Source: Acinetobacter wanghuae
Lineage (GTDB): Bacteria; Pseudomonadota; Gammaproteobacteria; Pseudomonadales; Moraxellaceae
Assembly (NCBI RefSeq): GCF_009557235.1
Contig: NZ_CP045650.1
Coordinates: forward strand, 720,001 to 752,000
Direction: 5' to 3'
DNA length: 32,000 nt
Part shown: piece after piece, positions 1 to 13,893 of the stretch
Position numbering within the stretch: the stretch's first letter is position 1
How the letters are laid out: the number at the start of each line of letters is the position of its first letter
Position numbers and translations under genes: made by a program
Notes under the pieces: model-generated
What the model was told of the DNA's origin: nothing
The model's input: the letters and a program-made list of their open reading frames with translations, nothing else
Databases searched by the model: none

Positions 1-7
1 GGGGGCA

Positions 8-553
8 TTGATGTCAATTGCAAAGCAAGAAATTGTTAGCCTATATAACGAAGTAAAAGATAGTGTGAATCATGCAATCAATGATATTAGTTCAATATCT
101 TTATCAAGTGAGGAGGAGCAGAAACATATCTTACAAATCAAAGATAAATTAAGTGAAATTAGTCAAAGCTTCAATAAAGAGATTGATAGTCTAGAAAAGA
201 ACTCAGAATGGGAAAAATTTACTATTGCCTTTTTTGGGGAGACAAATGCTGGAAAAAGTACGATCATTGAGTCCTTGAGGATTATTTTTAAAGAAAAAGA
301 ACGCCAAAAACACATTGAAAATGGTCAAGCTTCATTAGATGAGTTGGAAAAAACGTTTTCTGAAAATTCGGGTGCTTTAATTGCAGACTTGAATACAAGT
401 CTGCAAAATTATACGAATGAAATACGAAATATTGAAAGACAAATTACCTTAATCAAAAAAGAAAGTAATTCTTCATTTAATAATAAGATATTTGCTGCAG
501 CTGGGATATTCTTGGGAATCATCCTAACACTGATCTATCAGGCAGTGATTTAG
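8..553 (+). CDS. LeoC-like P-loop fragment of a split bacterial dynamin-like GTPase, with a C-terminal membrane anchor
   Basis: The ORF has TTG at 8 and ATG at 11; GGGGG at 1-5 could be the Shine-Dalgarno (SD) site, and upstream context is cut by the window edge. It has a canonical G1/P-loop, FFGETNAGKST (nt 236-262), but no G3 or G4 motif. A helical E/K/Q-rich stretch follows, then a C-terminal hydrophobic helix IFAAAGIFLGIILTLIYQAVI. The ORF ends 10 nt before the next ORF. Confidence 0.6.
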   Translation: MMSIAKQEIVSLYNEVKDSVNHAINDISSISLSSEEEQKHILQIKDKLSEISQSFNKEIDSLEKNSEWEKFTIAFFGETNAGKSTIIESLRIIFKEKERQKHIENGQASLDELEKTFSENSGALIADLNTSLQNYTNEIRNIERQITLIKKESNSSFNNKIFAAAGIFLGIILTLIYQAVI

Positions 554-563
554 GAGAAATAAG

Positions 564-2534
564 ATGACAAATCTGAATAATGATAGATGGTTCTATTTAG
601 ATAAAAAACATGAAACTTTAGGTAATTTTAATTCACAACAATTATTAGAGTTATATCAAAGAAAAATTCTTACAAATCGCAGTTATGTTTGGAAAGAAGG
701 TTTTGAAGACTGGAAAAGATTTAAAGATGTACGCCCATCAATTCAGAATCAAGAATTAAAGATTATAGAACAACAGGTTCAAATTGAATCAGTAACTAAA
801 GAAAGTGATTTAAATAGTTCTAAATTAAGCAATTCTAAAATTGTGGAAAAGCAAGAATTAAATAATATCGATTATACAGCTCCATATCGCGTGAATTGGA
901 TATCTGAAAATCATAAACAGAATGTAACAAGTTTGACACAGCAAATCGCTGAAAGTTTAGCTTTACAAAAGAGGTTAGAAAGTTTTCGATTATCACCAAA
1001 TAAACCAGATGGGTTGATTATAGGTACTGGTGAAGCTGACTTTACCAAGGATAACGTTCCTTATGAGTTTACTTATCAAAATAAAACATTCCAGTTGATT
1101 GATGTTCCTGGTATTGAAGGAAATGAAGGACGGTATGAGCAGTTTGTAAAAGAAGCAGTAGAAAAAGCTCATTTAGTAATTTATGTAAACGGGACTAATA
1201 AGAAGCCTGAAGAACTTACTGCTCGTAAAATCAAAAGTTATCTGAATCAATATGCAAAAATATATGCAGTTTGTAATTTGCGTGGTAAAGCCGATAAATA
1301 TGATTCAGAAATAGATGAACTAGTTTCATTAAAACATAGCCATAAAGAAATGGATGATGTTTACAATCAGACTTTAATTGTATTAAATCAAGCTGTAGGA
1401 GCCGATTTGATAGACGGAGGTACGTGTGTTCAGGGCTTAATGGCATTCTCTTCATTAGCTTACGATCAGAGTGAAGAAGAAACTACAATTTCATCTAGTC
1501 GTAAAGATTTAATTGCAACACAAAAGTCATTTATGCGTGACTTTCCTTCATTAGAAAAAATGAAAGAATTTAGTCAAATAGATGAGTTAGAGCAAAAAAT
1601 AATTTCAAAATTTTCTACGTTTGAAGAGGATATTATTGAAAGTAATAAAAATAAAATCGTTAGAAAAATAGAACAAATTAAAGCTGTTATTCAAGAACAA
1701 CTAAACGATCATCTGAAATTGCAAACAAAGATTAAGAAGGAGCTTGACGTTGGTCGAGATTCAATTAATCGAGCTTTAAACGATTTTGAAAGTAAGTTAT
1801 CGAATAAATCTAATAATGCAGTGAGTTCGGCTTTTATTAATATTGCAGATGAAGGATGTTTGATAATTGAAAAATACTTTGGTAACCAAGAACAAATATC
1901 TTCAAATATTGAAGATATAGTAGATTATGCAACTCACAATCTTTTCAAAGAATTAGAGAAAATTAAGACAGAAGAAAGTCAGTATTTTCAAGATAATCTA
2001 CAAGAGATAATACAGAGAATTGGGCGAAGTATTGAACAAGTTCAAATTAATAGTGAATTGGAATATTCTCAAGATCAAGATTTATCAATAAAGTTTTCAA
2101 GTGCATCCACGTTTGATGTAAAAACCATAGGAAAAGGCTTAATTGAAATTGGTAGCATGGCGGCATTAGGTGCAAGTATTGGAACAGTATTCCCCGTAAT
2201 AGGAAATATAGTTGGTGGACTACTAGGTGGATTGCTTGGATTAATTAAAGCCGGCCTAGATTTCTTTCGTAGTGAAAAATCAAAAATTAATAAAGCACAA
2301 AGTAAATTTAGGGGAAATGTTGAAAATGAACAATCGGGATTTAAATCCAAGTTGCGAGATACACTGAGTGAAACGACAAGTTCCGTTAGAGATTATGTGG
2401 ATGTCAACATTATTAAAAAAATCTACATTGAATATGAAAAAATGTGTGATATTGAACGTATTTTGAATGAACAAATAAATAAACTATCGAATTTAAGTAA
2501 TCAAATTAAGGGGAAGGGTTATGGAACAATTTAA
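564..2534 (+). CDS. GYF_2-domain fusion to the P-loop-less remainder of a dynamin-like GTPase (LeoB-like)
   Basis: An SD site (AGGAG) precedes ATG 564. The N-terminus DRWFYLDKKHETLGNFNSQQLLELYQRKILTNRSYVWKEGFEDWKRFKDV looks like a GYF_2/DUF4339 module. The G3 motif DVPG is at nt 1101-1112, preceded by a switch-I-like GTGEADFTKD, but there is no GxxxxGK[ST]. A long helical stalk follows. A glycine-rich hydrophobic paddle GSMAALGASIGTVFPVIGNIVGGLLGGLLGLIKAGL sits near the C-terminus. Confidence 0.6.
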   Translation: MTNLNNDRWFYLDKKHETLGNFNSQQLLELYQRKILTNRSYVWKEGFEDWKRFKDVRPSIQNQELKIIEQQVQIESVTKESDLNSSKLSNSKIVEKQELNNIDYTAPYRVNWISENHKQNVTSLTQQIAESLALQKRLESFRLSPNKPDGLIIGTGEADFTKDNVPYEFTYQNKTFQLIDVPGIEGNEGRYEQFVKEAVEKAHLVIYVNGTNKKPEELTARKIKSYLNQYAKIYAVCNLRGKADKYDSEIDELVSLKHSHKEMDDVYNQTLIVLNQAVGADLIDGGTCVQGLMAFSSLAYDQSEEETTISSSRKDLIATQKSFMRDFPSLEKMKEFSQIDELEQKIISKFSTFEEDIIESNKNKIVRKIEQIKAVIQEQLNDHLKLQTKIKKELDVGRDSINRALNDFESKLSNKSNNAVSSAFINIADEGCLIIEKYFGNQEQISSNIEDIVDYATHNLFKELEKIKTEESQYFQDNLQEIIQRIGRSIEQVQINSELEYSQDQDLSIKFSSASTFDVKTIGKGLIEIGSMAALGASIGTVFPVIGNIVGGLLGGLLGLIKAGLDFFRSEKSKINKAQSKFRGNVENEQSGFKSKLRDTLSETTSSVRDYVDVNIIKKIYIEYEKMCDIERILNEQINKLSNLSNQIKGKGYGTI

Positions 2535-4266
2535 ACAATACAATATCCAAAAAGATGATGTGATCTATCAACTTAGCCAGTTAAAAAAATTAGTAGAGCA
2601 GCTAGAGGATGTTGGAATTGATTCAACTGATGTATTAAATAAAATTGAAAACTCTATATCTAGCGTAAGGGATGATACGCTTAGAATTGCATTGCTAGGT
2701 GCATTTTCTGATGGAAAAACGAGTGTAATTGCAGGTTGGCTGGGCCATGTGATGGATGACATGAAGATCGACAGTGATGAGTCTTCTAATGAGTTAGCAA
2801 TTTATAAACCAAATCATTTACCTGAAAAATGTGAAATTGTTGATACGCCAGGATTGTTTGGTGATAAGCAACAATTAGATGGGAACGGAAATCTAATTCA
2901 ATATAGTGATATCACACGAAAGTATATTTCCGAAGCTCATCTAATTTTTTATGTAGTTGATGCGGTGAATCCTCTAAAAGAGAGTCATAAAGATACTGTT
3001 AAATGGGTCTTGAGAGATCTAAATAAATTATCCTCCACTGTATTTGTGATCAATAAAATGGATGAGGTTGCAGATTTGAGAGATGAAGATGAATTTGCTC
3101 ATCATGCTGCTATCAAAAAAGATAATCTACTAGAAAAATTGAAACGTTTTGTTGATCTTACTGCTGCTGAATGTGAAGCAATAAATATTGTGTGTTTGGC
3201 ATCAAATCCAAATGGGCGAGGTTTAGATTTTTGGCTTGAAAAAAGAGATGTTTATGAAAAACGTTCAAGAATAGGTAATCTAAAAAAATTAACTAATCAG
3301 ATTCTTACTAATAATACTAAGAAAGATTTAATTAATAAGACAGGAATAGATGTTGTTAAGGATATATTAGTACAAAATTTAACAATGGCACAATCACAAT
3401 ATTCCTCTATCGATGCGTATATAAGTAATACATATCAAGAAATTCAAGTAATAACAAATGATTTAGCTAAGGCTAGAAGAGCTTTTATAGATGCCAAGTT
3501 TGATTTGGTCACAGACTTACAATTGAGTGAAAAAAGTTTATTGGGAGCTATTTATGTATTAACACCTGAAGATTTAAAAATCTTTGTTGATGGGGAAATT
3601 GGTTATTCAAATAATGATGTGGGCTATAAACTTAGACAGAATATTGAATTAGTTTGCCAAAAACATTTTAATTACGCTGCTGGTATTCTTCAGGATTTGA
3701 CTATTAAGGTTGAGCATCAGTTATATCAATCTGAACAATACGCAAACTCATTATCTAAAGCTGCTTTTAGCTCTTCTAGCTTTGCATTAAAGCAACTCGG
3801 TAAAATGCCTGTAAATACTATTAAAACAACTGTTTTTACTGCCCGGGATCTTCTCAGTAGTATGACTGGTTTATCTTTGAAATTTAAACCTTGGGGAGCA
3901 GTAAATTTAGCTACCAATATTGGAAAATGGGCTGGGCCAATTGGAATAGGTATTTCAATATTTTCACAAATTCATGAGCAATATCAAAAACAGAAAGTTG
4001 AACAAGAGTTCAATGAAGCTAAAAACCAAATTAACTCTCTAGTAATGGAACATTTTAAAACGGTATACGACTTGTTAAGTAATGATAAAGATGCAATTGC
4101 TAATTTTGCTCCTCAATTAGGTGTTTTTCAGCAACTTCTTGACCAACAAAAACAAGATCTTGAAGATTTACAGATACGTAAAGCCAAACTAATTAAGATC
4201 TCCGAAGATTTTAAGAAAATTGGTTCTAGTCAACTAATCTCAGCTCAGTTTGAAAAAGCAGTATGA
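2521..4266 (+). CDS. Bacterial dynamin-like protein (LeoA/BDLP-like large GTPase)
   Basis: It carries a complete GTPase motif set: G1 GAFSDGKT (nt 2698-2721), G3 DTPG (2842-2853) and G4 NKMD (3052-3063). A long helical stalk follows. A hydrophobic paddle-like segment WGAVNLATNIGKWAGPIGIGISIF is present. An SD site (GGGGAAGGG) precedes the ATG, and the ORF overlaps the upstream ORF by 14 nt. Confidence 0.78.
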   Translation: MEQFKQYNIQKDDVIYQLSQLKKLVEQLEDVGIDSTDVLNKIENSISSVRDDTLRIALLGAFSDGKTSVIAGWLGHVMDDMKIDSDESSNELAIYKPNHLPEKCEIVDTPGLFGDKQQLDGNGNLIQYSDITRKYISEAHLIFYVVDAVNPLKESHKDTVKWVLRDLNKLSSTVFVINKMDEVADLRDEDEFAHHAAIKKDNLLEKLKRFVDLTAAECEAINIVCLASNPNGRGLDFWLEKRDVYEKRSRIGNLKKLTNQILTNNTKKDLINKTGIDVVKDILVQNLTMAQSQYSSIDAYISNTYQEIQVITNDLAKARRAFIDAKFDLVTDLQLSEKSLLGAIYVLTPEDLKIFVDGEIGYSNNDVGYKLRQNIELVCQKHFNYAAGILQDLTIKVEHQLYQSEQYANSLSKAAFSSSSFALKQLGKMPVNTIKTTVFTARDLLSSMTGLSLKFKPWGAVNLATNIGKWAGPIGIGISIFSQIHEQYQKQKVEQEFNEAKNQINSLVMEHFKTVYDLLSNDKDAIANFAPQLGVFQQLLDQQKQDLEDLQIRKAKLIKISEDFKKIGSSQLISAQFEKAV

Positions 4267-4273
4267 GGTTGTG

Positions 4274-5743
4274 ATGTTATCAAACAAACTTTTTAAGCAG
4301 AATTTTTTTACGCTTTATTTCTCAGCTAAGGGGCGAATTAGCCGTAGTCTTTTTTGGAAGTCATTCTTTACAGGCTGTTGTGGAGTTATTGGTTTATTTT
4401 TTGTTTTGATAATACTGCAAGGGTTGGGAGTAATTAACGATGCTAGCCTTGGATTTTTAGGGTTAGGCTTATACATACTCGCATATTATGGATTATTTAT
4501 CTTAACCATTAAGCGATTACATGATTTTAATTTTTCAGGATGGTGGTCAATACCAGCATTAATTCTAATTGTTCCTTTAATTGCTATTGGTTTGACTAGA
4601 GAAAAGAAAGGTGAAAATAAATATGGTTATAATGCAATCGAATATGAAAATTCCAGATTGTCGATAAATAAGTCGAATGGCTTACCACCGCCACCACCAC
4701 CATTAGATAATCCTATAAGTAAAATTATTTTATCTTTAATCATGATATTACCTATTCCAAGCTTGGTCATAGCAGGTTTAACTAATACTTCTCAGATATC
4801 TACAAAAGAAGTGAATACAACAGAAAACGATTTACCATTTATATTAGAGCCGGGTGACATATATCAAAAAGTCGAAGCTACAGATGATGTAGAGGCTTAT
4901 TATATTGTGACTAAAGCGAATGGTATAATTGAGCATTATAGTTTAGATGGTGTATTACAGTGGTCTAATGCTGAAAGTGAAATAGACTTAGAGGAAGAAA
5001 AAATAAGTTTTGTTAAAAAACTCTATATAAAAGAAATTTCAGAGAATTCATATCATGTCATAGAGGAGAATTCCTCTTTAGAGTTACGTGAACTGTTCAA
5101 TCAGCGTGATGCTATCTCCGATAGAAATCAAGGAGAAATGTGTGATTGGGTTGGTCGTGTTTTAGTTCCTGGGAATGGAGATATAACTTTAAATATTAAT
5201 GATATTCATATTTCCTTATTAAGTAACGGTCTCGTTCGTGCCCTTTTTAAAGCTGATGATGAAAATATTATCAGAGATTTTGATATCCAATGTATTAACG
5301 GACAATGTAAAATTCATGATATTTATTACCCTAATAGCTATAAACAAGAGTTAAAGGAGATCGCAGAGAAAAATATCTGTACATCTTTGGACACTAATAA
5401 TGAAGCAAATAAAATAGTTACGGGTTCTGGATTAGGATATGAGTCAATTGTAGAAGGTTCAGGTAGGATGCCTACAGAGGATTCTATTGTAGTTGTACAT
5501 TACGAGGGTAAATTGATTGATGGCACAGTGTTTGATAGCTCATATCAACGTGGTCAATATATAGAATTCCCTCTTAATCAAGTTATTCCAGGGTGGACAG
5601 AAGGTCTTCAGTTAATGAAAGAAGGGGGTAAAGCTACTTTATATATTCCATCTCATTTAGCATATGGTAAACAAGGAGTACCAGGTACGATCCCACCAAA
5701 TAGCGAATTAACTTTCGAAGTAGAACTGATTGAAGTTAAATAA
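4274..5743 (+). CDS. Membrane protein fusing a DUF805-type N-terminal domain, a poly-Pro linker, an unknown domain and a C-terminal FKBP-type peptidyl-prolyl isomerase domain
   Basis: I prefer ATG 4274 (GAGG at 4265-4268, 5 nt spacing) over the ORF track's TTG at 4250. The N-terminus GRISRSLFW...IKRLHDFNFSGWW...GENKYG with about 4 TM helices is typical of DUF805. A PPPPPP linker and one more hydrophobic helix follow. The C-terminus GLGYESIVEGSG...VVVHYEGKLIDGTVFDSSYQRG...VIPGWTEGLQLMKEGGKATLYIPSHLAYG...IPPNSELTFEVELIEV is a textbook FKBP_C domain. Confidence 0.78.
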   Translation: MLSNKLFKQNFFTLYFSAKGRISRSLFWKSFFTGCCGVIGLFFVLIILQGLGVINDASLGFLGLGLYILAYYGLFILTIKRLHDFNFSGWWSIPALILIVPLIAIGLTREKKGENKYGYNAIEYENSRLSINKSNGLPPPPPPLDNPISKIILSLIMILPIPSLVIAGLTNTSQISTKEVNTTENDLPFILEPGDIYQKVEATDDVEAYYIVTKANGIIEHYSLDGVLQWSNAESEIDLEEEKISFVKKLYIKEISENSYHVIEENSSLELRELFNQRDAISDRNQGEMCDWVGRVLVPGNGDITLNINDIHISLLSNGLVRALFKADDENIIRDFDIQCINGQCKIHDIYYPNSYKQELKEIAEKNICTSLDTNNEANKIVTGSGLGYESIVEGSGRMPTEDSIVVVHYEGKLIDGTVFDSSYQRGQYIEFPLNQVIPGWTEGLQLMKEGGKATLYIPSHLAYGKQGVPGTIPPNSELTFEVELIEVK

Positions 5744-5815
5744 TACTTAAAGTTTATAATTAAATTGAACTTTAGATAATTATAGATTTTTTTATTTAGT
5801 AAAGTATTAAAGGGA

Positions 5816-5858
5816 ATATTATGGAATATTAATACTCCCTTTAATTTTAAAAATTTCG
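5816..5858 (+). terminator. Hairpin between convergent genes; candidate intrinsic terminator
   Basis: ATTAAAGGGA (5816-5825) pairs with TCCCTTTAAT (5846-5855). Internal AATATT/AATATT pairing is possible, and a short T run follows. The loop is long and the T tract weak. Confidence 0.35.
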
Positions 5859-6011
5859 AACGGTCTGCTATATCTTAAATCCTTCTAAACAGTATCCAGA
5901 AACTAATTGGATAATTCAGATTCAGCACTTTTTATTGAGTTTATTTTGCAGATGATTCTAGATGCAATTTTCAGTTGAGATGCTAGCCATCAAGCTAAGG
6001 TACAAGCTTTA

Positions 6012-6743
6012 CTAAATAGCTAATACAACCTGATACGGTTTAAACCCTGCTAATACAGCTTCGGAAACCAATTGAATAAAAGCATCAGTTTTGCCATAAG
6101 CCATCCATTGATCTAAAGCTTCATAGTAGGCCAAGCGATTTTCAACAGTGATAACACATGGTGGATAACCCGCTTTAAGTAATTCGAGATTCATTAATAG
6201 ACGTGATGTACGTCCATTGCCATCAATGAATGGATGGATACCTACAAAATCCGCATGTACTTTAGCAGCACGTTCTATAGGATGAAGCTTATGTGCTTCC
6301 GTGTTATACCAATTGATTAACTGGGCCATCTTGTCATTTAGCAGCGTATAGTCTGGTGGCGTAGTTGTAGCACCTGAAATTAAAACATTTTGTTGACGAT
6401 AGCGACCTGCATTTTCATCATCAATATTTTTTAGAATGAGTTGGTGAATATTTCGAATCTGCCATTCAGAGAAAGGTTCTTCTTTTCGAATAATATCTTC
6501 AACATAGTAGATAGCATTTCTATGGTTGACCGCCTCAAAATGTTCTCGTAATGCTTTGCCACCGACAGTGATACCTTCTAGGACAACTTTTGTTTCAAGT
6601 AAGGTAAGTGTATTGCCTTCGATCGCATTTGAGTGATATGTCCAACGTAGAATAAGGTCTTCTTGTAGATTTTTTACAATTGCAGGTGAAAGAGGGCGAT
6701 GCTGATCTAACTTTGTTTTCAAATCATCAATACTTTCAAACAT
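6012..6743 (-). CDS. Fic-domain protein (AMPylase family), class II with an N-terminal auto-inhibitory motif
   Basis: The Fic catalytic motif HPFIDGNGRTSR is encoded at 6201-6236 (minus strand). The inhibitory-helix motif (S/T)xxxE(G/N), here SNAIEG, is at 6615-6632 and lies N-terminal to the catalytic motif. Confidence 0.9.
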   Translation of the reverse strand: MFESIDDLKTKLDQHRPLSPAIVKNLQEDLILRWTYHSNAIEGNTLTLLETKVVLEGITVGGKALREHFEAVNHRNAIYYVEDIIRKEEPFSEWQIRNIHQLILKNIDDENAGRYRQQNVLISGATTTPPDYTLLNDKMAQLINWYNTEAHKLHPIERAAKVHADFVGIHPFIDGNGRTSRLLMNLELLKAGYPPCVITVENRLAYYEALDQWMAYGKTDAFIQLVSEAVLAGFKPYQVVLAI

Positions 6744-7092
6744 GATCTTATCCCTGAATGTGTTTTAATGAATGATACATGAAAAAGAAATATCAAAAAA
6801 TGTAATGATATAGCATCACATTATATTCTTGGGGGGAATGGTAAAATGAGTACAAAAGTTCTGATAATAAATAAGTAGCAGTTTTTAGATTCATGAATAT
6901 ACGAGCATATTCAAAGTTTTATTTGTGGCTTAAATCTACTGCGTATTGTGGGGCAAATTCTAGATCGTCTTTATAGAAGTACTGACATCTTTTGATCCTA
7001 TGATCATGCTTCAATGTAAACACGGCATATCAGTATTTTAAATTCCAATAACTTAAAAAAATTAGTATCTTATAGGAAAAATTACTTGTCTA

Positions 7093-10000
7093 ATGATACA
7101 TAAATCAGTTGTGAGTACTATGCTAAATAACGAAAATCAAACTCCAAAAAACAATGGCTTATTAACGATCTATCTATATGACTCTTATTTAAAAGGTTCA
7201 TTAACCAAGCTAGAAGTTTTTGGGGGGCATACCAATCTCACAGGACAAAATGGCGCAGGGAAAACCTCAGCACTCAATCTTATACCTGTATTTTATGGTG
7301 CTAGACCAGATCGGATGATGGATCGATCTGCCAATAAACTCAATTTTACTGATTATTATTTGCCACATGATCGTAGTTTGTTGATTTATGAGTATGCAAC
7401 ACCGCTGGGCATCAATTGTGCCGTGTTCTATCGCCATCCTACCCAAGAGCGACTCTGTACTCGATTTATCCAAGGCGCAGCAGAAAAGACTTTATTAACT
7501 CAAGAAAACCTTCAATTCCATGCGGAAAATAATAGTGCTAAGGAGCTATTTTCCCACTTGTATAAACAAGGGGTGAATGTCAGTCTGCAAATAGAACACA
7601 CCAAGGATTACAAAGCTGTTATTACCAATGAACGGTTTAGATTAAAAGCAAATCCGAAATTGCGAGAGTTGGCAGTACTCTTTTCCTTAGCTGGGCAAAA
7701 ATTGGAAATTAAACATGTCGGTGATTTAACGCAGATTACCTCAAATAAATTGAATCTCTTAGACAGCTTTAAACAGATGCTAATTGATCTATATTTAGAT
7801 AGTGAAAGATCTGTGACCAAATTTAAAATCAGTCATGATTTTGCTGAAGTGACGAATGAGCTGCGTGTTTTATATCGATTACAAAAAGAAAAGCCAAAGA
7901 TTCAAGCAGGGATTGAGCGTAGAACGGTACTTCTCAATACCTATGAAGAGTTGTCAGCATATCAATCACATGTGCAAACATGGAAAATAAACAATGAAGA
8001 TCAAATTCATCTTTTTGAAACAAACTTAGCTGACCTAAAGCAAAAGTTACAGCGTGATGTAGCTGAACTCAATCAGAAAATTGCTGTAAATAGTACTGAG
8101 CTTGCATCTATCGAAGGAAAATTAACGGCATCACAGGCACATTTAAAGCGGATTGTAGATACTGAAACATTTTATAAGCAAAATAATATTTTAAAAAAAC
8201 AACAGGAGTTTCATCATTTAGCGACTCATGAACAGAACATGCTGGATGCTAAAAACTATTTAAGTGAGCTCGAACAAAATTATCAGGATGTCAAAAATAA
8301 ATTCAGCCAATTAGAGCTGGAGATACTGAAGCAAAAAGACCGTGATGTTGGTCGTAACACAGAAACTTTAGAACAGCTCGCAAATGAAAAAGAACAGCTC
8401 AGCATCAAGCAAAAACAACGAATGGATGAGCTTTTACAAGCCAAACATGCTGAAGAGTTGGATTTTAATCAAAGTCACGAAAAACAACGTTCGGAGTTTG
8501 AGGCTAAAATTACCCGCTGTACAACTCGCATTGAAACTGTCATGCGTATGGAGGCAAATGAAGAACAAGAGGACAGTGCTTATCGCGTTGATATTGATTT
8601 AAAGAACATCAAAATTCAGAACAAAGACAAAGAAATTAAACAGTACTATCAAAATCAATCTGTTTTACGCGATGAGTATGAACATCTTCGCGAAGAACTG
8701 CGTTTAGAAAAACAGAGGTTGCAGCAACTCGAGGCTGAAAAAAAGTCCTTGATCGAATTGATTGAGTCGAATGACACTATTTTACATTTTTTAAATCAAA
8801 ACCCAGATGTAAATTGGCGTGAACATATTGCAAAAGTCATTCACCCTAAATTACTCGCACGTAAGGATTTAAGTCCGTATTGGGATTTAGAATTAGATGG
8901 CTTTGGTAGCTTCTATGGCCTCAACTTAGATCTTGATCAGTTATCTCTTCCGCAGGAAGCAGATTCTTTAGATATCCAAACAGCACGACTTGCTGAAGTA
9001 TCGCTAAATATAGATGAACTGCATAAAACAGTGCAAAGCTTGGAGATCGCATTTAATAAACTGCATAAAAAGCGTCATGATGCGGAATTGCATACCATCC
9101 AGTTCAATACTGAACTCAATGCTTTAAAATCAGAGCTTGAAAGTCTACATATTGAATATCAATCTTTTAAAGATCGTCTGCAATTGGCCATTCAGGAACG
9201 CAAACAGGTTGCAGAAGATTTTCTCAGAACAACGCAAAGACAATACGATGAATTCAAACGGACTGTTGAGCAAGAGCGCCAGGCAATTAATGTGAGGTTT
9301 TTGCAAGAACGACAACGGATTGAAGATGCCATTCAAGATGAAAAAAATATTTTAACTGAACAGCAAATCGCCTTAAAACAGCAAAATCTTAATATTCAAG
9401 AAGATTGCCAGCGTAAGCTGGAAGACTTGAGTGTCATGTATGAAAGTGAGCTGCAACAACGTGGTTTTGATGTGCAAGTACAACGCAATGCGAAGCAAAG
9501 ATTTGAACAGCTGCGGGATGAATATGAACGTATTAAAAACTATCGCGATGAATTACAGAAATATGCACAGTGGTTAGAAAATGAATATCGATTAAAAGAC
9601 TATTTGTCAGAGCAAATCAGCGCTTATGAAAAAGAGCTGTATCGAGTTAATTTACAAAAACAAAAATTAAAAGATAAATTAGAGTCTGTGAATCAATTGG
9701 CTCAACATGATAGTCAGAAGATCAGTGCAACCATTCGGAGCGTTGAAGCCGAAAATAAAAAACTGACGGCACTTGCTTCCATGCTCGATCAATTATTTGG
9801 CGATGTAGAGGCCATTGAGATCAATACAACTGTTGATGTTGCCAAACCAGTTAACTTTGAGATGCTGTGTCGTTATACCGAGGATTTAATCTCACGTCGA
9901 GCACAACAATACAAAGAACTCAAACAGTCGGTATATGTGATCATGTCGATCATTCGCCAAGATACGGATCTTGAATTGTATAAATTATGGAAGAGCCGTA

Positions 10001-10869
10001 TTGACCGTTATGGTGCTTTAACAGGTGTTGCCTATGATTTACAGAGTATGTTTGAAATTGAAGAAATGCTCTATCACGATATCCCAAGCCGAGAGGCCTT
10101 GATTCGTGCGCAATTCTGTCTAAAAGCCTACAGCTTACGTGATTATGCTGAAGCAGTCTTAAGCTTCAATGCGAAACTGAATAAAGTCTCAAAGGATTTA
10201 AATTATAAAACAAACTCGACCAACCCATTCCCAGCGCTCACTGAAATTGAAACGAAATTGGTATCGGTACTTGATGGATTGGATGTGTATGAACAGTTAA
10301 AGAGCTATGTCCGAGAGTTGCAAGAATCCAATTTAGAAGATTCGACTTTATTGCCTTCAGAACGACTTATTGAGTCTTATGAGCGTACATACACCGCATT
10401 AGAAAGTGCCAAAGTGGATACTAATGATATTCAAACATTAGTCCGTCTACGTATTGGTTATAAGGAAAACGGGCGTACTGTTGTAGTCAATAATGATTCG
10501 GATTTGGCACAGGGCAGTAGTACTGGTTTATCTCGGCTCATCATTATCATCATCTTTACTGCTTTAACTCGTGATATGTGCCCTGATCTTAATACTGCGA
10601 TTCACATGCCTTTAGATGAAATTGGTCAATTTGATACACAAAATACCACGCGCTTATTCCAATTGATGCAGGATCAAAATATACATTTGATTTGTGCGCA
10701 ACCGGGACTCACAGCCGAGCTGAGTAAGCGATTCAAACATAAGCATGATATTGATCGTAATTTCGGTATCCGTAGATTTGTGGTACAGAAAAGTCTGTTA
10801 GCCAATCCCTTATTGGCACATGAAAGCACGCAAAATAATGAGCCAACTCCAGTTGCTGAGGTTGAATGA
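7093..10869 (+). CDS. SMC/MukB/JetC-like ABC-type ATPase (head - coiled coil - hinge - coiled coil - head), 1258 aa
   Basis: Walker A GQNGAGKTS is at 7243-7269. Very long E/K/Q/L-rich helical arms are interrupted at the protein midpoint by a Pro/Gly-containing non-helical segment (about 8790-8975: NPDVNWREH...SPYWDLELDGFGSFYGLNLDLDQLSLPQEAD). The C-terminal signature-like GSSTG is at 10513-10527. A hydrophobic strand LIIIIIF and the Walker B sequence PLDE (10609-10620) complete the head. Confidence 0.82.
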   Translation: MIHKSVVSTMLNNENQTPKNNGLLTIYLYDSYLKGSLTKLEVFGGHTNLTGQNGAGKTSALNLIPVFYGARPDRMMDRSANKLNFTDYYLPHDRSLLIYEYATPLGINCAVFYRHPTQERLCTRFIQGAAEKTLLTQENLQFHAENNSAKELFSHLYKQGVNVSLQIEHTKDYKAVITNERFRLKANPKLRELAVLFSLAGQKLEIKHVGDLTQITSNKLNLLDSFKQMLIDLYLDSERSVTKFKISHDFAEVTNELRVLYRLQKEKPKIQAGIERRTVLLNTYEELSAYQSHVQTWKINNEDQIHLFETNLADLKQKLQRDVAELNQKIAVNSTELASIEGKLTASQAHLKRIVDTETFYKQNNILKKQQEFHHLATHEQNMLDAKNYLSELEQNYQDVKNKFSQLELEILKQKDRDVGRNTETLEQLANEKEQLSIKQKQRMDELLQAKHAEELDFNQSHEKQRSEFEAKITRCTTRIETVMRMEANEEQEDSAYRVDIDLKNIKIQNKDKEIKQYYQNQSVLRDEYEHLREELRLEKQRLQQLEAEKKSLIELIESNDTILHFLNQNPDVNWREHIAKVIHPKLLARKDLSPYWDLELDGFGSFYGLNLDLDQLSLPQEADSLDIQTARLAEVSLNIDELHKTVQSLEIAFNKLHKKRHDAELHTIQFNTELNALKSELESLHIEYQSFKDRLQLAIQERKQVAEDFLRTTQRQYDEFKRTVEQERQAINVRFLQERQRIEDAIQDEKNILTEQQIALKQQNLNIQEDCQRKLEDLSVMYESELQQRGFDVQVQRNAKQRFEQLRDEYERIKNYRDELQKYAQWLENEYRLKDYLSEQISAYEKELYRVNLQKQKLKDKLESVNQLAQHDSQKISATIRSVEAENKKLTALASMLDQLFGDVEAIEINTTVDVAKPVNFEMLCRYTEDLISRRAQQYKELKQSVYVIMSIIRQDTDLELYKLWKSRIDRYGALTGVAYDLQSMFEIEEMLYHDIPSREALIRAQFCLKAYSLRDYAEAVLSFNAKLNKVSKDLNYKTNSTNPFPALTEIETKLVSVLDGLDVYEQLKSYVRELQESNLEDSTLLPSERLIESYERTYTALESAKVDTNDIQTLVRLRIGYKENGRTVVVNNDSDLAQGSSTGLSRLIIIIIFTALTRDMCPDLNTAIHMPLDEIGQFDTQNTTRLFQLMQDQNIHLICAQPGLTAELSKRFKHKHDIDRNFGIRRFVVQKSLLANPLLAHESTQNNEPTPVAEVE

Positions 10870-11504
10870 TGATTCCACACCATTTAAAAAGTCAGATCCT
10901 GAACGCGCTATTGGCAGGGCGTATTATTAGTGAGTATACGGACAAAGAGTTTTTTGCAATTTTAAGACAAGTACATGCCTTAGAAGAAATCAATACTGCC
11001 TTGGCCATGCTAGATAAACGTTGTGTCATGAGTACGCAAAATTCAGCCTACTACTGTGTGTATACACGAGAAAATTTAACGAAAGAAGAAGCAGAGATTG
11101 TACGTAAGCAATTTGAAGAAAGTAAATTTAGATTAGAGTTCGTAAGTGCTTGGGCTGAGTTTTGTCGCAGTGAGTTAAGTAAAAATAGTTTGCCAATTCA
11201 AAGTGGCGATATTATTTCTTATACCGATTTATTACGTGTAACTGATGAATCGAGTATTGCTAAAGCCAAGCTGGCGGATTTAATTAAACGTATTAAACGA
11301 AATACCACCACGATTAAAGATCAACTCAGTTCTGTTTTACAATATTTAGTCGATCATGAATATTTAGTGCCGACGGGAAATAATGGTGTTGCTTATCTAG
11401 CGACAGGTAAGTGGTCAGTTCTTTACGATGAGCTTGAGTTTATGTGCTCACATCATCAGCTCTCTTTTGACACACCAGAGCCTGAGCAGGGTGAATTGCT
11501 GTGA
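10866..11504 (+). CDS. Hypothetical protein, 212 aa; second gene of the SMC-like operon (KITE/MksE-sized; no recognisable motif)
   Basis: The start overlaps the upstream stop as ATGA (10866-10869), and the stop overlaps the next start as GTGA. The ORF is same-strand and tightly coupled. Any functional assignment rests only on size and position. Confidence 0.6.
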   Translation: MMIPHHLKSQILNALLAGRIISEYTDKEFFAILRQVHALEEINTALAMLDKRCVMSTQNSAYYCVYTRENLTKEEAEIVRKQFEESKFRLEFVSAWAEFCRSELSKNSLPIQSGDIISYTDLLRVTDESSIAKAKLADLIKRIKRNTTTIKDQLSSVLQYLVDHEYLVPTGNNGVAYLATGKWSVLYDELEFMCSHHQLSFDTPEPEQGELL

Positions 11505-12733
11505 CAGACTTAATCAATTATGCAGAGAAACCAGCAAGAGTCTTATTAAACTACATTGAGCAGATTAGTGAGGCGGTCTATTTTCATAATTCTGGCTTTG
11601 TCATTGATGAAAATAATAAAGTAATGCTGGATGCACTCAATAATGCTGAATTGGGCTATTACAACACTGAGAACAACAGTTTCCAGTTGCACAACATCAT
11701 TATCAATTTTGTCAGCTTTTATAAAAAAAGAAAAATTATCAATAATGCCAAAATGATCAATCAAATTTTGGATGAGATTAAACATGCGACCTATGATTTG
11801 GTACAGGCTAAAATAGAAACACCTGAGAGTGTCGACTTGCTTAAACAAGAAATCATCGATTTGGTCATTTCACTGTCAAATGCCATCCATGAAAGCTCTT
11901 ACAACTTTGCAATTTTAGCAATGCGCGATTTAACTTTATTTAATAACCTAAAGTTACGCATCAAGCGGATTACACGTCATATCGCAGTGGTCAATGAGCT
12001 ATTGTCCGTGCATGGGGTTTTATCGCATAGTGAAATGATTAAACTGGCTGTGGGAGATAAAGACTTAGAGCATTCGATTCGGCACTATCTCATGCCAGTA
12101 TTTCGTCAGAGTAAAATTGATCTGATTGATAGTCTTGGAAAACTTGAAAAGCAACTTTTTGAATGGAAGCAAGAAGAGGTCTATCAACGACAAAACAATA
12201 TGATAGATGCTTGGCTGAAATACTGTCAGCAACATGCATCTATCCGCGATGATGTAGATATTTATGACCTACCAGATAGCTTTTATCGTATTCCGCGTAA
12301 AGATTTGGTTTGCCGAGCTGATTTAAATCAGCTCACGGATGACTTAGTCGAGATCAGTACTGGAGTAATGAAGAAAGCATTGCAGGATCAGCAAATACTT
12401 GAGCAAAAGGCTGAGCAAGTCCTAGAGACGGTCATTACGAAAGAAGAGATTATGACTCAACAAGAATCACCGCTTGAAATTGCACTGAATCATTTCTTTG
12501 AAGCACTTATGCCAGCTCAGACAGGTGGGTATCAAACTTTGGATGCAAGGTCGACTTTTGAAAAATTATCACCAGACTGTGAGTTAGATTATTGGGTCAG
12601 TAGTTTGGTGTCCTGCTGTCGTAATGATTATCCACAAGACTTAAAGATCGAATTTATCGAAGAGATTGATCCAGTATTTACTGGTAATAGTCAGGTCACC
12701 AATGTGGTCATTTCTAGAGTGGAACGCTCATGA
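11501..12733 (+). CDS. Hypothetical protein, 410 aa; third gene of the SMC-like operon (kleisin-sized; no recognisable motif)
   Basis: The GTG start at 11501 overlaps the upstream TGA, and its own TGA overlaps the next ATG (12730-12733). The sequence looks mostly helical, with no catalytic motif seen. Confidence 0.6.
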   Translation: MTDLINYAEKPARVLLNYIEQISEAVYFHNSGFVIDENNKVMLDALNNAELGYYNTENNSFQLHNIIINFVSFYKKRKIINNAKMINQILDEIKHATYDLVQAKIETPESVDLLKQEIIDLVISLSNAIHESSYNFAILAMRDLTLFNNLKLRIKRITRHIAVVNELLSVHGVLSHSEMIKLAVGDKDLEHSIRHYLMPVFRQSKIDLIDSLGKLEKQLFEWKQEEVYQRQNNMIDAWLKYCQQHASIRDDVDIYDLPDSFYRIPRKDLVCRADLNQLTDDLVEISTGVMKKALQDQQILEQKAEQVLETVITKEEIMTQQESPLEIALNHFFEALMPAQTGGYQTLDARSTFEKLSPDCELDYWVSSLVSCCRNDYPQDLKIEFIEEIDPVFTGNSQVTNVVISRVERS

Positions 12734-13590
12734 TGAATGGTAAACAGTTAAATGTAATTAAACATGCCATTCAGTCTAAAAAGAAAGTGGTAGAACTGAA
12801 CCAGACATGGCTCATGCTCAATCAGGACTTTCAAGTGGGTGTTAAACAGGGACGAGAGTTGCTCTTAAGTCATCGTGATTATGAGATGCTCACAGCAATT
12901 TATCAGCGTCATATCAAAGTTGCACCATCAGTGAATATCACACTTCAGCAAGATCGTATGACCTTGGTGGATTATTTGAAAGATGAAAAAGTTGGTGGAT
13001 TTAACGTATTTGCAGATCAATTGGTCTTTGCATCGGTATCAACTGATTTACCATTAAAAACAGGTAAGGCGACGATTGCTTTTGCGGGGATGTTAGCGAC
13101 TACACAGATTGAAAACCTTGATATACCGGCAATACAGCGCATCATTATTATTGAGAATGGTGCCATGATGAGTCGGGTATTTGATTGGTATATGCAGTTA
13201 CCTATTGAATGGCAGTCGAGCCTGTTTGTTTATCGTGGGCATGGCAGCAACATTAAAACGGTAGTCAAATTACTAAAACAAGTATCGATGAGTTGCTTGG
13301 TAGCTTTTTATGGTGATTTTGATCCTTATGGGATTAATATTGCCTCTCATTTTTATAAAATCCGCCCTTTAGCACTGATCGTACCGTATATTTGGAAGGA
13401 AATTAGAGCAACTCACATCGATAACAATATACATAAATACATGAAGCAGATTGTTCAGAGTCGTGATCTCGCCGTTGATCAAGAAGAACCTATAGTTTTA
13501 AGAGAGCTATTTCATCACATTAAAACGAACCAAATTGCGATTATGCAGGAGAATGTAAATCGAATAGGACGTTTGATGGTTCTGTATTAA
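12730..13590 (+). CDS. Compact Toprim-domain protein, JetD/MksG C-terminal (DUF2220)-like; putative nuclease subunit
   Basis: The Toprim acidic residues occur in the JetD-type arrangement: RIIIIENGAMM (E at 13153-13155), then SLFVYRGHGSN, then AFYGDFDPYGINI (DxD within 13312-13332). The protein is only 286 aa, with about 135 aa N-terminal to the Toprim core. Confidence 0.7.
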   Translation: MMNGKQLNVIKHAIQSKKKVVELNQTWLMLNQDFQVGVKQGRELLLSHRDYEMLTAIYQRHIKVAPSVNITLQQDRMTLVDYLKDEKVGGFNVFADQLVFASVSTDLPLKTGKATIAFAGMLATTQIENLDIPAIQRIIIIENGAMMSRVFDWYMQLPIEWQSSLFVYRGHGSNIKTVVKLLKQVSMSCLVAFYGDFDPYGINIASHFYKIRPLALIVPYIWKEIRATHIDNNIHKYMKQIVQSRDLAVDQEEPIVLRELFHHIKTNQIAIMQENVNRIGRLMVLY

Positions 13591-13854: not shown

Positions 13855-13873
13855 CCGGACGCCATCTCCACCA
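13855..13873 (+). other. tmRNA/tRNA 3'-acceptor-end-like fragment (CCGGACGCCATCTCCACCA); candidate distal att site of the island
   Basis: The fragment ends in a discriminator A plus CCA. The implied acceptor strand CATCTCC would pair with 5' GGGGAUG through a G3:U70 pair (tRNA-Ala/tmRNA identity). No D, anticodon or T arm lies upstream, where the sequence is about 80% AT, so this is a fragment and not a gene. Confidence 0.4.
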
Positions 13874-13893
13874 AAATTCTTGTTACAAATCAG

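Follow-up and report, generated by a model that had tools for sequence, protein, structure and literature searches.

We analysed a stretch of 32,000 nucleotides from Acinetobacter wanghuae (NZ_CP045650.1, positions 720,001 to 752,000; "the window", to which all coordinates refer unless marked as genome positions). The genes at its start very probably constitute an Acinetobacter-type four-gene version of the LeoCBA dynamin-like system, also named Eleos, on a defence island of approximately 30 kb at the tmRNA gene. Going by profile matches and gene order, the first three genes are orthologues of leoC, leoB and leoA: one dynamin is divided over LeoC and LeoB, and its partner LeoA is complete. This split-dynamin core was already published in 2014 and has dedicated models in a defence catalogue, to which the window adds one more example. 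As far as the searched literature shows, the four-gene architecture, with a GYF domain on LeoB and a DUF805 membrane protein encoded behind leoA, is undescribed. The four genes are as follows.

11..553, forward strand: leoC, 180 amino acids; N-terminal helices, beta1, P-loop, alpha1, coiled coil and C-terminal transmembrane (TM) anchor; PADLOC LeoC, 4.2e-54.
564..2534, forward strand: leoB, 656 amino acids; GYF domain, disordered linker, helix, switch I, G domain from beta2 onwards, stalk and Gly-rich paddle; PADLOC LeoB, 3.6e-171.
2521..4266, forward strand: leoA, 581 amino acids; complete dynamin-like GTPase; PADLOC LeoA, 4.3e-237.
4274..5743, forward strand: fourth gene, 489 amino acids; DUF805, conserved juxtamembrane polyproline block, TM helix, variable region with 4 Cys and FKBP-type peptidyl-prolyl isomerase domain.

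A first-pass annotation of this DNA had described a dynamin-like operon of Eleos/LeoABC type consisting of three open reading frames, at 8..553 (181 amino acids), 564..2534 (656) and 2521..4266 (581). These frames are present, including the 14-nucleotide overlap between the second and the third (2521-2534), and every motif coordinate it gave translates as claimed. Two details required adjustment. The first frame indeed exists from TTG 8, but ATG 11 is the likelier start of leoC because the orthologues begin with MSIAKQE or MTIAKQE; this ATG has GGGGG 5 nucleotides upstream, and TTG 8 is the alternative start. Also, the three dynamin genes do not make up the complete operon, which was thought to end at 4266. 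The ATG of the fourth gene is found 7 nucleotides past the leoA stop and a GAGG overlaps that stop, an arrangement by which the gene is judged to be translationally coupled to leoA. Between leoC and leoB there is a gap of 10 nucleotides. From this spacing we infer that the operon genes are co-transcribed.

PADLOC has separate models for the split form (LeoC and LeoB) and for fused LeoBC, and its dedicated models match all three dynamin proteins, in line with the proposed Eleos/LeoABC-type identity. The genes for the second dynamin, leoC and leoB, immediately precede leoA in the same orientation, the gene order by which Eleos is recognized. LeoA scores 617 bits against the LeoA/HP0731 model of NCBIfam (NF041922, cut-off 325), aligns over residues 1-559 with the crystal structure of LeoA from enterotoxigenic Escherichia coli (ETEC; PDB 4AUR, E = 1.3e-166) and contains the Pfam DLP_helical domain (6.6e-67). 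It is a complete dynamin-like GTPase, as had been proposed, with all three nucleotide-binding motifs read directly from the translation:

2698-2721, forward strand: LeoA G1, GAFSDGKT.
2842-2853, forward strand: LeoA G3, DTPG.
3052-3063, forward strand: LeoA G4, NKMD.

The expected similarity to the dynamin family is thus found in the PADLOC, 4AUR and DLP_helical matches, and a Foldseek search pairs the LeoB model with BDLP. A single Myxococcota locus returned by a search for related loci with LeoB only was irrelevant and was not used.

Position of the split in the G domain

The motifs of the split dynamin are distributed over LeoC and LeoB as listed below.

236..262, forward strand: G1/P-loop GETNAGKST, on LeoC.
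494..550, forward strand: C-terminal TM helix of LeoC, residues 162-180 (Kyte-Doolittle hydropathy 2.2 over 19 residues).
1023..1046, forward strand: switch-I-like (G2) motif GTGEADFT, on LeoB; candidate G2 threonine T161.
1101..1112, forward strand: G3/switch II DVPG, on LeoB; aligns with DTPG of LeoA.
1272-1295, forward strand: CNLRGKAD of LeoB, residues 237-244 at the end of beta5, the G4 position.
2148..2258, forward strand: hydrophobic Gly-zipper paddle of LeoB (approximately residues 529-565), which the model places between the helices of the stalk.

A motif scan found the sole Walker A on LeoC, which lacks DxxG, and one DxxG on LeoB, which lacks Walker A; the first-pass annotation had placed the P-loop likewise, and its TM helix and glycine-rich paddle were recovered too. 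LeoC residues A73-S83 are invariant and their flanks at least 90% conserved over 45 homologues. A hydrophobic C-terminal tail is present in eight of eight aligned LeoC proteins, so that the part carrying the P-loop is predicted to be anchored in the membrane, as had been suggested.

Mapping on fused proteins shows that the two parts are collinear. In the fused LeoBC profile of PADLOC, positions 15-98 are covered by LeoC (residues 10-91) and positions 100-600 by LeoB (residues 135-653). Real fused proteins occur in the same bacterial family: four Moraxellaceae loci (L005-L008) encode single chains of 729-817 amino acids with a LeoA gene behind them, and these match PADLOC LeoBC at 1e-126 to 1e-135. 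With BLAST, LeoC 10-104 maps for example to residues 27-124 of the L005 protein and LeoB 131-574 to residues 297-724, in order and free of overlap. The profile and the fused proteins bear out the claim that the split is genuine: LeoC and LeoB occupy adjacent, non-overlapping parts of one protein, with the P-loop and the C-terminal anchor on LeoC and the DxxG on LeoB. An hhalign comparison of LeoC with LeoA, based on a shallow alignment of eight sequences, gave a spurious C-terminal match (probability 2%) and was set aside; the N-terminal mapping rests on the hidden Markov models and BLAST instead.

Conservation and spacing lead us to place switch I (G2) on LeoB, not on LeoC, which agrees with the switch-I-like region noted there earlier. 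Most of LeoB D149-T161 is invariant across 70 homologues; within the motif G154, T155, G156, D159, F160 and T161 do not vary, and E157 and A158 do. From T161 to D180 of G3 there are 19 residues, the same spacing as between the invariant E87-S88-S89 and D108 in LeoA. In the fused proteins the equivalent motif DGxIIGxGxxDFT is located just before DVPG. The distance between P-loop and DVPG amounts to 198-258 amino acids in these relatives, and the intervening sequence is coiled-coil-like, with a hydrophobic patch near its middle in three of the four. The cut therefore looks like one made between G1/alpha1 and switch I, inside the stretch where fused relatives have a long helical insertion. The TM anchor and the LeoB N-terminus, here with its GYF domain, are the two cut ends.

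LeoC-type proteins form at least 842 clusters and are found in Pseudomonas, Aeromonas, Pectobacterium, Azospirillum, enterics and others. Because of this number we take the split, which by sequence is real and collinear with the fused proteins, to be ancient as well. That it might stem from an assembly error or a frameshift, or that a fused leoBC is decaying here into a pseudogene, deserves practically no credence, and we have rejected this reading. The family does include genomes with a fused LeoBC, but no support for an artefact was found. LeoC ends in a TM helix followed by a stop, and leoB starts independently, at an ATG preceded by AGGAG, with a GYF domain of its own. Conservation rules the artefact out: the same split recurs throughout the LeoC clusters, and five Acinetobacter-type loci possess it at 40-92% protein identity. 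Also, the split region of ETEC was re-sequenced by Michie et al. to exclude an error (PMC4159319).

The AlphaFold2 model of LeoB (mean predicted local distance difference test, pLDDT, of 72) is consistent with this division. It starts with a GYF fold (residues 9-60); the linker at 65-113 is disordered and leads to a helix (115-143), after which come switch I (139-158, at low confidence) and beta2 (165-171). The G domain thus opens at beta2 and is devoid of beta1, P-loop and alpha1. Foldseek relates the model to BDLP, the Campylobacter pair of dynamin-like proteins (DLPs), LeoA, IniA, Drp1 and Mx proteins. LeoC modelled alone has a pLDDT of 59, and its most conserved segment (residues 64-92) is below 50.

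LeoC and LeoB would accordingly be two halves of one dynamin-like protein. LeoC would supply the N-terminal helices, beta1, the P-loop and alpha1, and would be tail-anchored in the inner membrane; LeoB would supply switch I (GTGEADFT), switch II (DVPG), the remaining G domain, the stalk and the paddle. Since beta1 is an inner strand of the GTPase sheet, the halves presumably have to co-fold in order to bind nucleotide. The LeoC helix around residues 95-158 is predicted to zip with the LeoB helix 115-143, and the resulting LeoCB heterodimer probably pairs with the soluble, complete dynamin LeoA. One observation fits less easily with an ordinary GTPase: LeoB has no NKxD (G4) after G3. At this position N238 is invariant instead, and R240 and G241 are conserved in at least 90% of the 70 homologues. 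The aspartate that usually provides guanine selectivity thus seems absent, and the split dynamin may not be GTP-specific. LeoA, unlike LeoB, keeps its G4.

The fourth protein and the GYF domain of LeoB

The two elements that set the operon apart from the published core are a domain at the LeoB N-terminus and a block in the fourth protein.

588..731, forward strand: GYF_2 domain, LeoB residues 9-56 (Pfam PF14237, 39.8 bits against a cut-off of 25.8).
4616..4723, forward strand: conserved block N115-K150 of the fourth protein, NxIEYExxRLxINxxxx-PPPPPP-LDNPISK, with the proline run at 4685-4702.

The GYF domain that had been noticed on the second frame is supported by both profile and fold. Besides exceeding the Pfam cut-off, the modelled N-terminus matches the GYF domains of GIGYF1/2 (7RUQ/7RUP), which were solved in complex with TNRC6 proteins, with a Foldseek probability of 1.0 and a root mean square deviation of 2.8-3.3 A over about 51 columns. 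Only the top ~44 of 443 LeoB homologues carry GYF_2. These are 40-92% identical to the LeoB of the window, and every named one comes from Acinetobacter. The listed LeoB proteins of Pseudomonas (543 amino acids) and of enterics and Vibrio (565-582) have no GYF_2. The copy number of the domain varies, because a metagenomic LeoB relative of 762 amino acids (L018:768-3056) has three in tandem ahead of the dynamin part. Elsewhere in the genome, GYF_2 occurs in just one further protein (genome 1566015-1566896), which combines this domain with an RDD-type membrane protein and has a proline-containing linker, AAPPVTP, after GYF. A weak GYF_2 match in G389 (an open frame of 665 amino acids) is in a dnaG/rpoD region and is irrelevant.

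The fourth protein matches Pfam DUF805 (PF05656) over profile positions 1-110 of 111 with 54.7 bits (cut-off 25.7). It shows the multi-TM core with both GRxxR and KRLHD, and K19, R21, K80, R81, L82 and D84 are invariant. Its C-terminal domain scores 111.5 bits against Pfam FKBP_C and 3.7e-37 against NCBIfam PRK10902. Using the first 250 residues as query, the family comprises 21 clusters in 5.8 billion proteins; 18 members were aligned. The juxtamembrane block NxIEYExxRLxINxxxx(L/F)PPPPPPLDNPISK has 13 invariant columns and 3 more that are at least 90% conserved. It ends in PPPPPPLDNPISK and is the best conserved stretch outside the DUF805 core, and nowhere else in the four operon proteins do three or more prolines follow one another. 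Past the next TM helix the sequences cannot be aligned: about half of the members have FKBP there and the rest Cys-rich or other modules. The orthologue P0141 seems to have an extra hydrophobic segment.

In seven of seven readable contexts (the window, L009, L011, L012, L013, L019 and L020) the fourth gene comes directly after leoA, at 7-9 nucleotides. Among the loci examined it occurs only beside GYF-bearing LeoB; three non-GYF loci examined (Pseudomonas, E. coli and Vibrio) have no such gene. As far as these sequences tell, the four-gene operon is a conserved variant in the Acinetobacter-type clade.

Our tentative proposal is that the fourth protein offers, with its polyproline block, a docking site for the LeoB GYF domain. 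It is made because the LeoB N-terminus has the GYF fold, proline-rich sequence is a known ligand of a bacterial GYF domain, and a natural fusion of GYF_2 and DUF805 exists. In Myxococcus xanthus, the GYF domain of GltJ has micromolar affinity for the proline-rich sequence of AglZ, which it contacts through a surface typical of prokaryotic GYF domains (PMC11135422). The fusion is encoded at L021:2942-3820 (reverse strand) in an unrelated high-GC genome (G604): a reading frame of 292 amino acids, within an open frame of 327, consists of GYF_2, the proline-rich linker TAPPPMPAQGQP and a four-TM DUF805. This suggests a cytoplasmic N-terminus for DUF805 and a functional link between the two domains. 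The candidate GYF-ligand peptide of the fourth protein is NKSNGLPPPPPPLDNPISK.

Several points weigh against docking. The first is topology: the charge bias at the TM helix that follows (7 K+R before, 3 after) would place the polyproline block in the cytoplasm, whereas the periplasm would be expected if DUF805 spans the membrane three times from a cytoplasmic N-terminus; for the DUF805 core itself the charge counts are ambiguous. Secondly, all LeoB proteins with GYF belong to one clade, and their link to the fourth gene is a single evolutionary event instead of independent replication. Finally, among the matches listed from 401 genomes of the phylum (113 DUF805 matches not being listed), GYF_2 and DUF805 are adjacent only twice, at the window locus and in one fused gene. 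The link is thus not general, and therefore we claim no statistical association.

The same topology argument can be read in favour of a different role, in which the fourth protein is an effector or sensor and not a dock; DUF805 might for instance permeabilize the membrane once the dynamins are triggered, with GYF binding something else such as a phage protein. The strict gene linkage agrees with this, as does the varying distal part, since specificity or sensor domains often vary in this way. Also, the three tandem GYF domains of one relative would fit multivalent binding of a foreign target. Nonetheless, we consider this role rather unlikely. It leaves aside that the proline run is unique within the four proteins and that its block is the best conserved outside the DUF805 core. 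Furthermore, bacterial GYF domains bind proline-rich sequences (PMC11135422), and the fusion of GYF_2, proline linker and DUF805 exists.

If GYF-polyproline docking does take place, it might recruit or position the dynamin at the fourth membrane protein. Extending this, one could picture a four-part machine, although we put it forward with reserve: the DUF805 protein captures the GYF domain of LeoB by its polyproline, a distal domain that can be exchanged (FKBP, or Cys-rich in relatives) senses a signal from the envelope or from a phage, and the split dynamin is recruited or switched on. We know of no mechanism or partner for Eleos. The clade offers it a candidate partner: a strictly linked membrane protein whose short, invariant motif lends itself to mutation, and for which the dynamin has a fitting peptide-binding domain. 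As a consequence of this pairing, recruitment is directly testable. If true, bacterial dynamin defence would have its first described adaptor or sensor, and the number of bacterial GYF-proline pairs known would rise to two.

The genomic island and the role of the system

The remaining features near the operon are given below.

5809..5842, strand not assigned: hairpin between the convergent fourth gene and fic; -14.6 kcal/mol in RNAfold, followed by an A/T-rich tail.
6012..6743, reverse strand: fic, 243 amino acids, convergent with the leo operon; Pfam Fic, 8.8e-24.
7093-13590: Wadjet/Mks-like operon of four genes; DUF3584 SMC-like ATPase (1258 amino acids, 1.6e-129), two proteins of 212 and 410 amino acids that match no family, and a DUF7281/JetD_C Toprim protein (286 amino acids).

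The tmRNA gene (ssrA) is located at genome 703438-703796, and 16 bases spanning its 3' end, CGCCATCTCCACCAAA, recur at 13860-13875 of the window. Because of this copy we delimit an island of approximately 30 kb at ssrA. Its cargo consists of a type I restriction-modification system, the leo operon, fic and the DUF3584/JetD-like four-gene operon, which has an unusual gene order. The hsdR region of the restriction-modification system ends about 289 nucleotides before the window starts. The GC content is 31% at the locus and 30-33% over positions 1-6000, where the genome as a whole has 40.6%. Of 74 sampled genomes of the genus only one contained LeoB, and of 301 of the family six did.

Upstream of leoC, where further operon genes had been considered possible, the gap of 289 nucleotides holds no gene for a WYL regulator, with the hsdR region beyond it. 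An HTH_11-WYL-WCX regulator directly precedes leoC in three of five relatives with readable upstream DNA (L009, L011 and L012). Here it was not found in the gap, nor anywhere in the genome using tblastn, and L020 also lacks it; the region L009:4960-6408 (~1.45 kb) corresponds to only ~260 nucleotides upstream of leoC in the window. Consequently, the operon may be expressed without a WYL repressor in this strain.

At the other end, the hairpin at 5809-5842 is likely, from its fold and its tail, to be a two-way terminator that ends the leo operon. It was spotted by eye and then folded using RNAfold; a simple terminator scan did not flag it, and in DNA this rich in AT the simple promoter and terminator scans were uninformative. 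In the Fic protein the active-site motif (HPFIDGNGRTSR) is intact, and there is an N-terminal SNAIEG motif of the inhibitory type. fic is found beside the fourth gene in four loci (the window, L009, L012 and L013), not in L011 or L019, and its membership in the module is uncertain. Window 4487-6873, covering the distal part of the fourth gene and fic, is 85% identical at the DNA level to L012:10953-13335. The leoCBA genes of L012 match only in patches, at about 70% DNA identity, and its LeoB is 40% identical at the protein level. These alignments suggest that the distal module was exchanged by recent recombination in which the dynamin genes took no part.

We assume that the LeoCB-LeoA pair would hydrolyse nucleoside triphosphates and thereby reshape or seal the cytoplasmic membrane when a phage infects, by analogy with fused Eleos and with DynA of B. 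subtilis. Two published findings count against such a defence role: anti-phage activity was demonstrated only for the fused two-gene system of Bacillus and for no split form (Millman et al. 2022, 10.1101/2022.05.11.491447), and the functional data on the split system, that of ETEC, concern the release of vesicles and toxin, with LeoA placed in the periplasm (PMC4159319).

The latter observations invite the view that the locus is a vesiculation or secretion module of LeoABC type, in which the dynamins drive the release of outer-membrane vesicles or maintain the envelope instead of acting against phages. In ETEC, leoAB mutants secrete less of the periplasmic and outer-membrane markers (Michie et al. 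2014, PMC4159319). The FKBP domain encoded by the fourth gene also resembles periplasmic FkpA-type isomerases, as seen from its PRK10902 match. The genomic setting tells otherwise and makes this view improbable: the locus is found between the type I restriction-modification and Wadjet-like operons on a mobile ssrA island, its distribution in the genus is sporadic, and the WYL regulator present in most of the readable relatives is typical of defence systems. Moreover, Eleos operons adjoin known defence systems in about 60% of cases, and the fused system does defend (10.1101/2022.05.11.491447).

Comparison with known systems

The first-pass annotation had stated that LeoC plus LeoB were proposed to make up one dynamin in ETEC, and that a LeoA/LeoBC pair was reported as an anti-phage system named Eleos. 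Both statements trace back to the literature. Michie et al. 2014 (PMC4159319) describe ETEC LeoC as a P-loop with a C-terminal anchor and LeoB as the remainder, the arrangement seen here. Millman et al. 2022 (10.1101/2022.05.11.491447) report that fused Eleos defends against jumbo phages and that P-loop mutants of either protein abolish defence; they mention the split form too. The name Eleos, formerly 'Dynamins', is from 10.1101/2022.12.12.520048.

The closest counterpart is LeoC/LeoB/LeoA of ETEC H10407. It shares the gene order leoC-leoB-leoA, the P-loop on a small tail-anchored protein, and the DxxG, stalk and paddle on LeoB. LeoC is somewhat shorter in the window (180 amino acids against 206) whereas LeoB is longer (656 against 572), the extra part being the N-terminal GYF domain with its linker. 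Downstream of leoA we find the DUF805-polyproline-FKBP gene, against an unrelated orf5 in ETEC, and there is no tia gene here. The assignment of switch I also differs: our mapping puts it on LeoB, whereas Michie et al. 2014 assign switch 1 to LeoC.

Bacillus vietnamensis Eleos likewise is a pair of dynamin-like GTPases in a defence island, and the PADLOC LeoBC and LeoA profiles match the window proteins. The P-loops of both partners, which its activity requires, are intact here. The Bacillus system differs in that it consists of two genes, LeoBC being fused. It lacks the GYF domain, the DUF805 partner and a TM anchor at the break, and the phages against which it has been shown to defend are all jumbo phages of Bacillus.

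The fold of the LeoB model matches Campylobacter DLP1/DLP2 (5OWV/5OXF), Nostoc BDLP, B. subtilis DynA and M. smegmatis IniA (Foldseek E 3e-7 to 4e-5). In these bacterial dynamin pairs the genes are paired or in tandem and there is a membrane paddle, as here, but in none of them is the G domain split over two polypeptides. With regard to the GYF domain, GltJ of Myxococcus xanthus (PMC11135422) is comparable: its cytosolic N-terminal GYF domain belongs to a machine that is associated with the membrane and acts together with a GTPase, and it binds a proline-rich sequence of a partner protein with micromolar affinity. Differences are that the machine serves gliding motility, that its GYF domain is paired with a zinc ribbon, that the partner is a soluble coiled-coil protein, and that no link to dynamins is known.

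Finally, the fused Moraxellaceae LeoBC proteins (L005-L008) are 25-43% identical to the window proteins. They share the LeoC-like N-terminus EWxxFxIAFFGETxAGKST, the motif before DVPG and the LeoA gene that follows, and differ in being a single chain with the helical insertion at the cut. The comparison with these relatives clarifies the split, by locating the cut inside that long insertion between alpha1 and switch I. In addition, they are naturally fused versions with which the biochemistry that eluded Michie et al. could be attempted.

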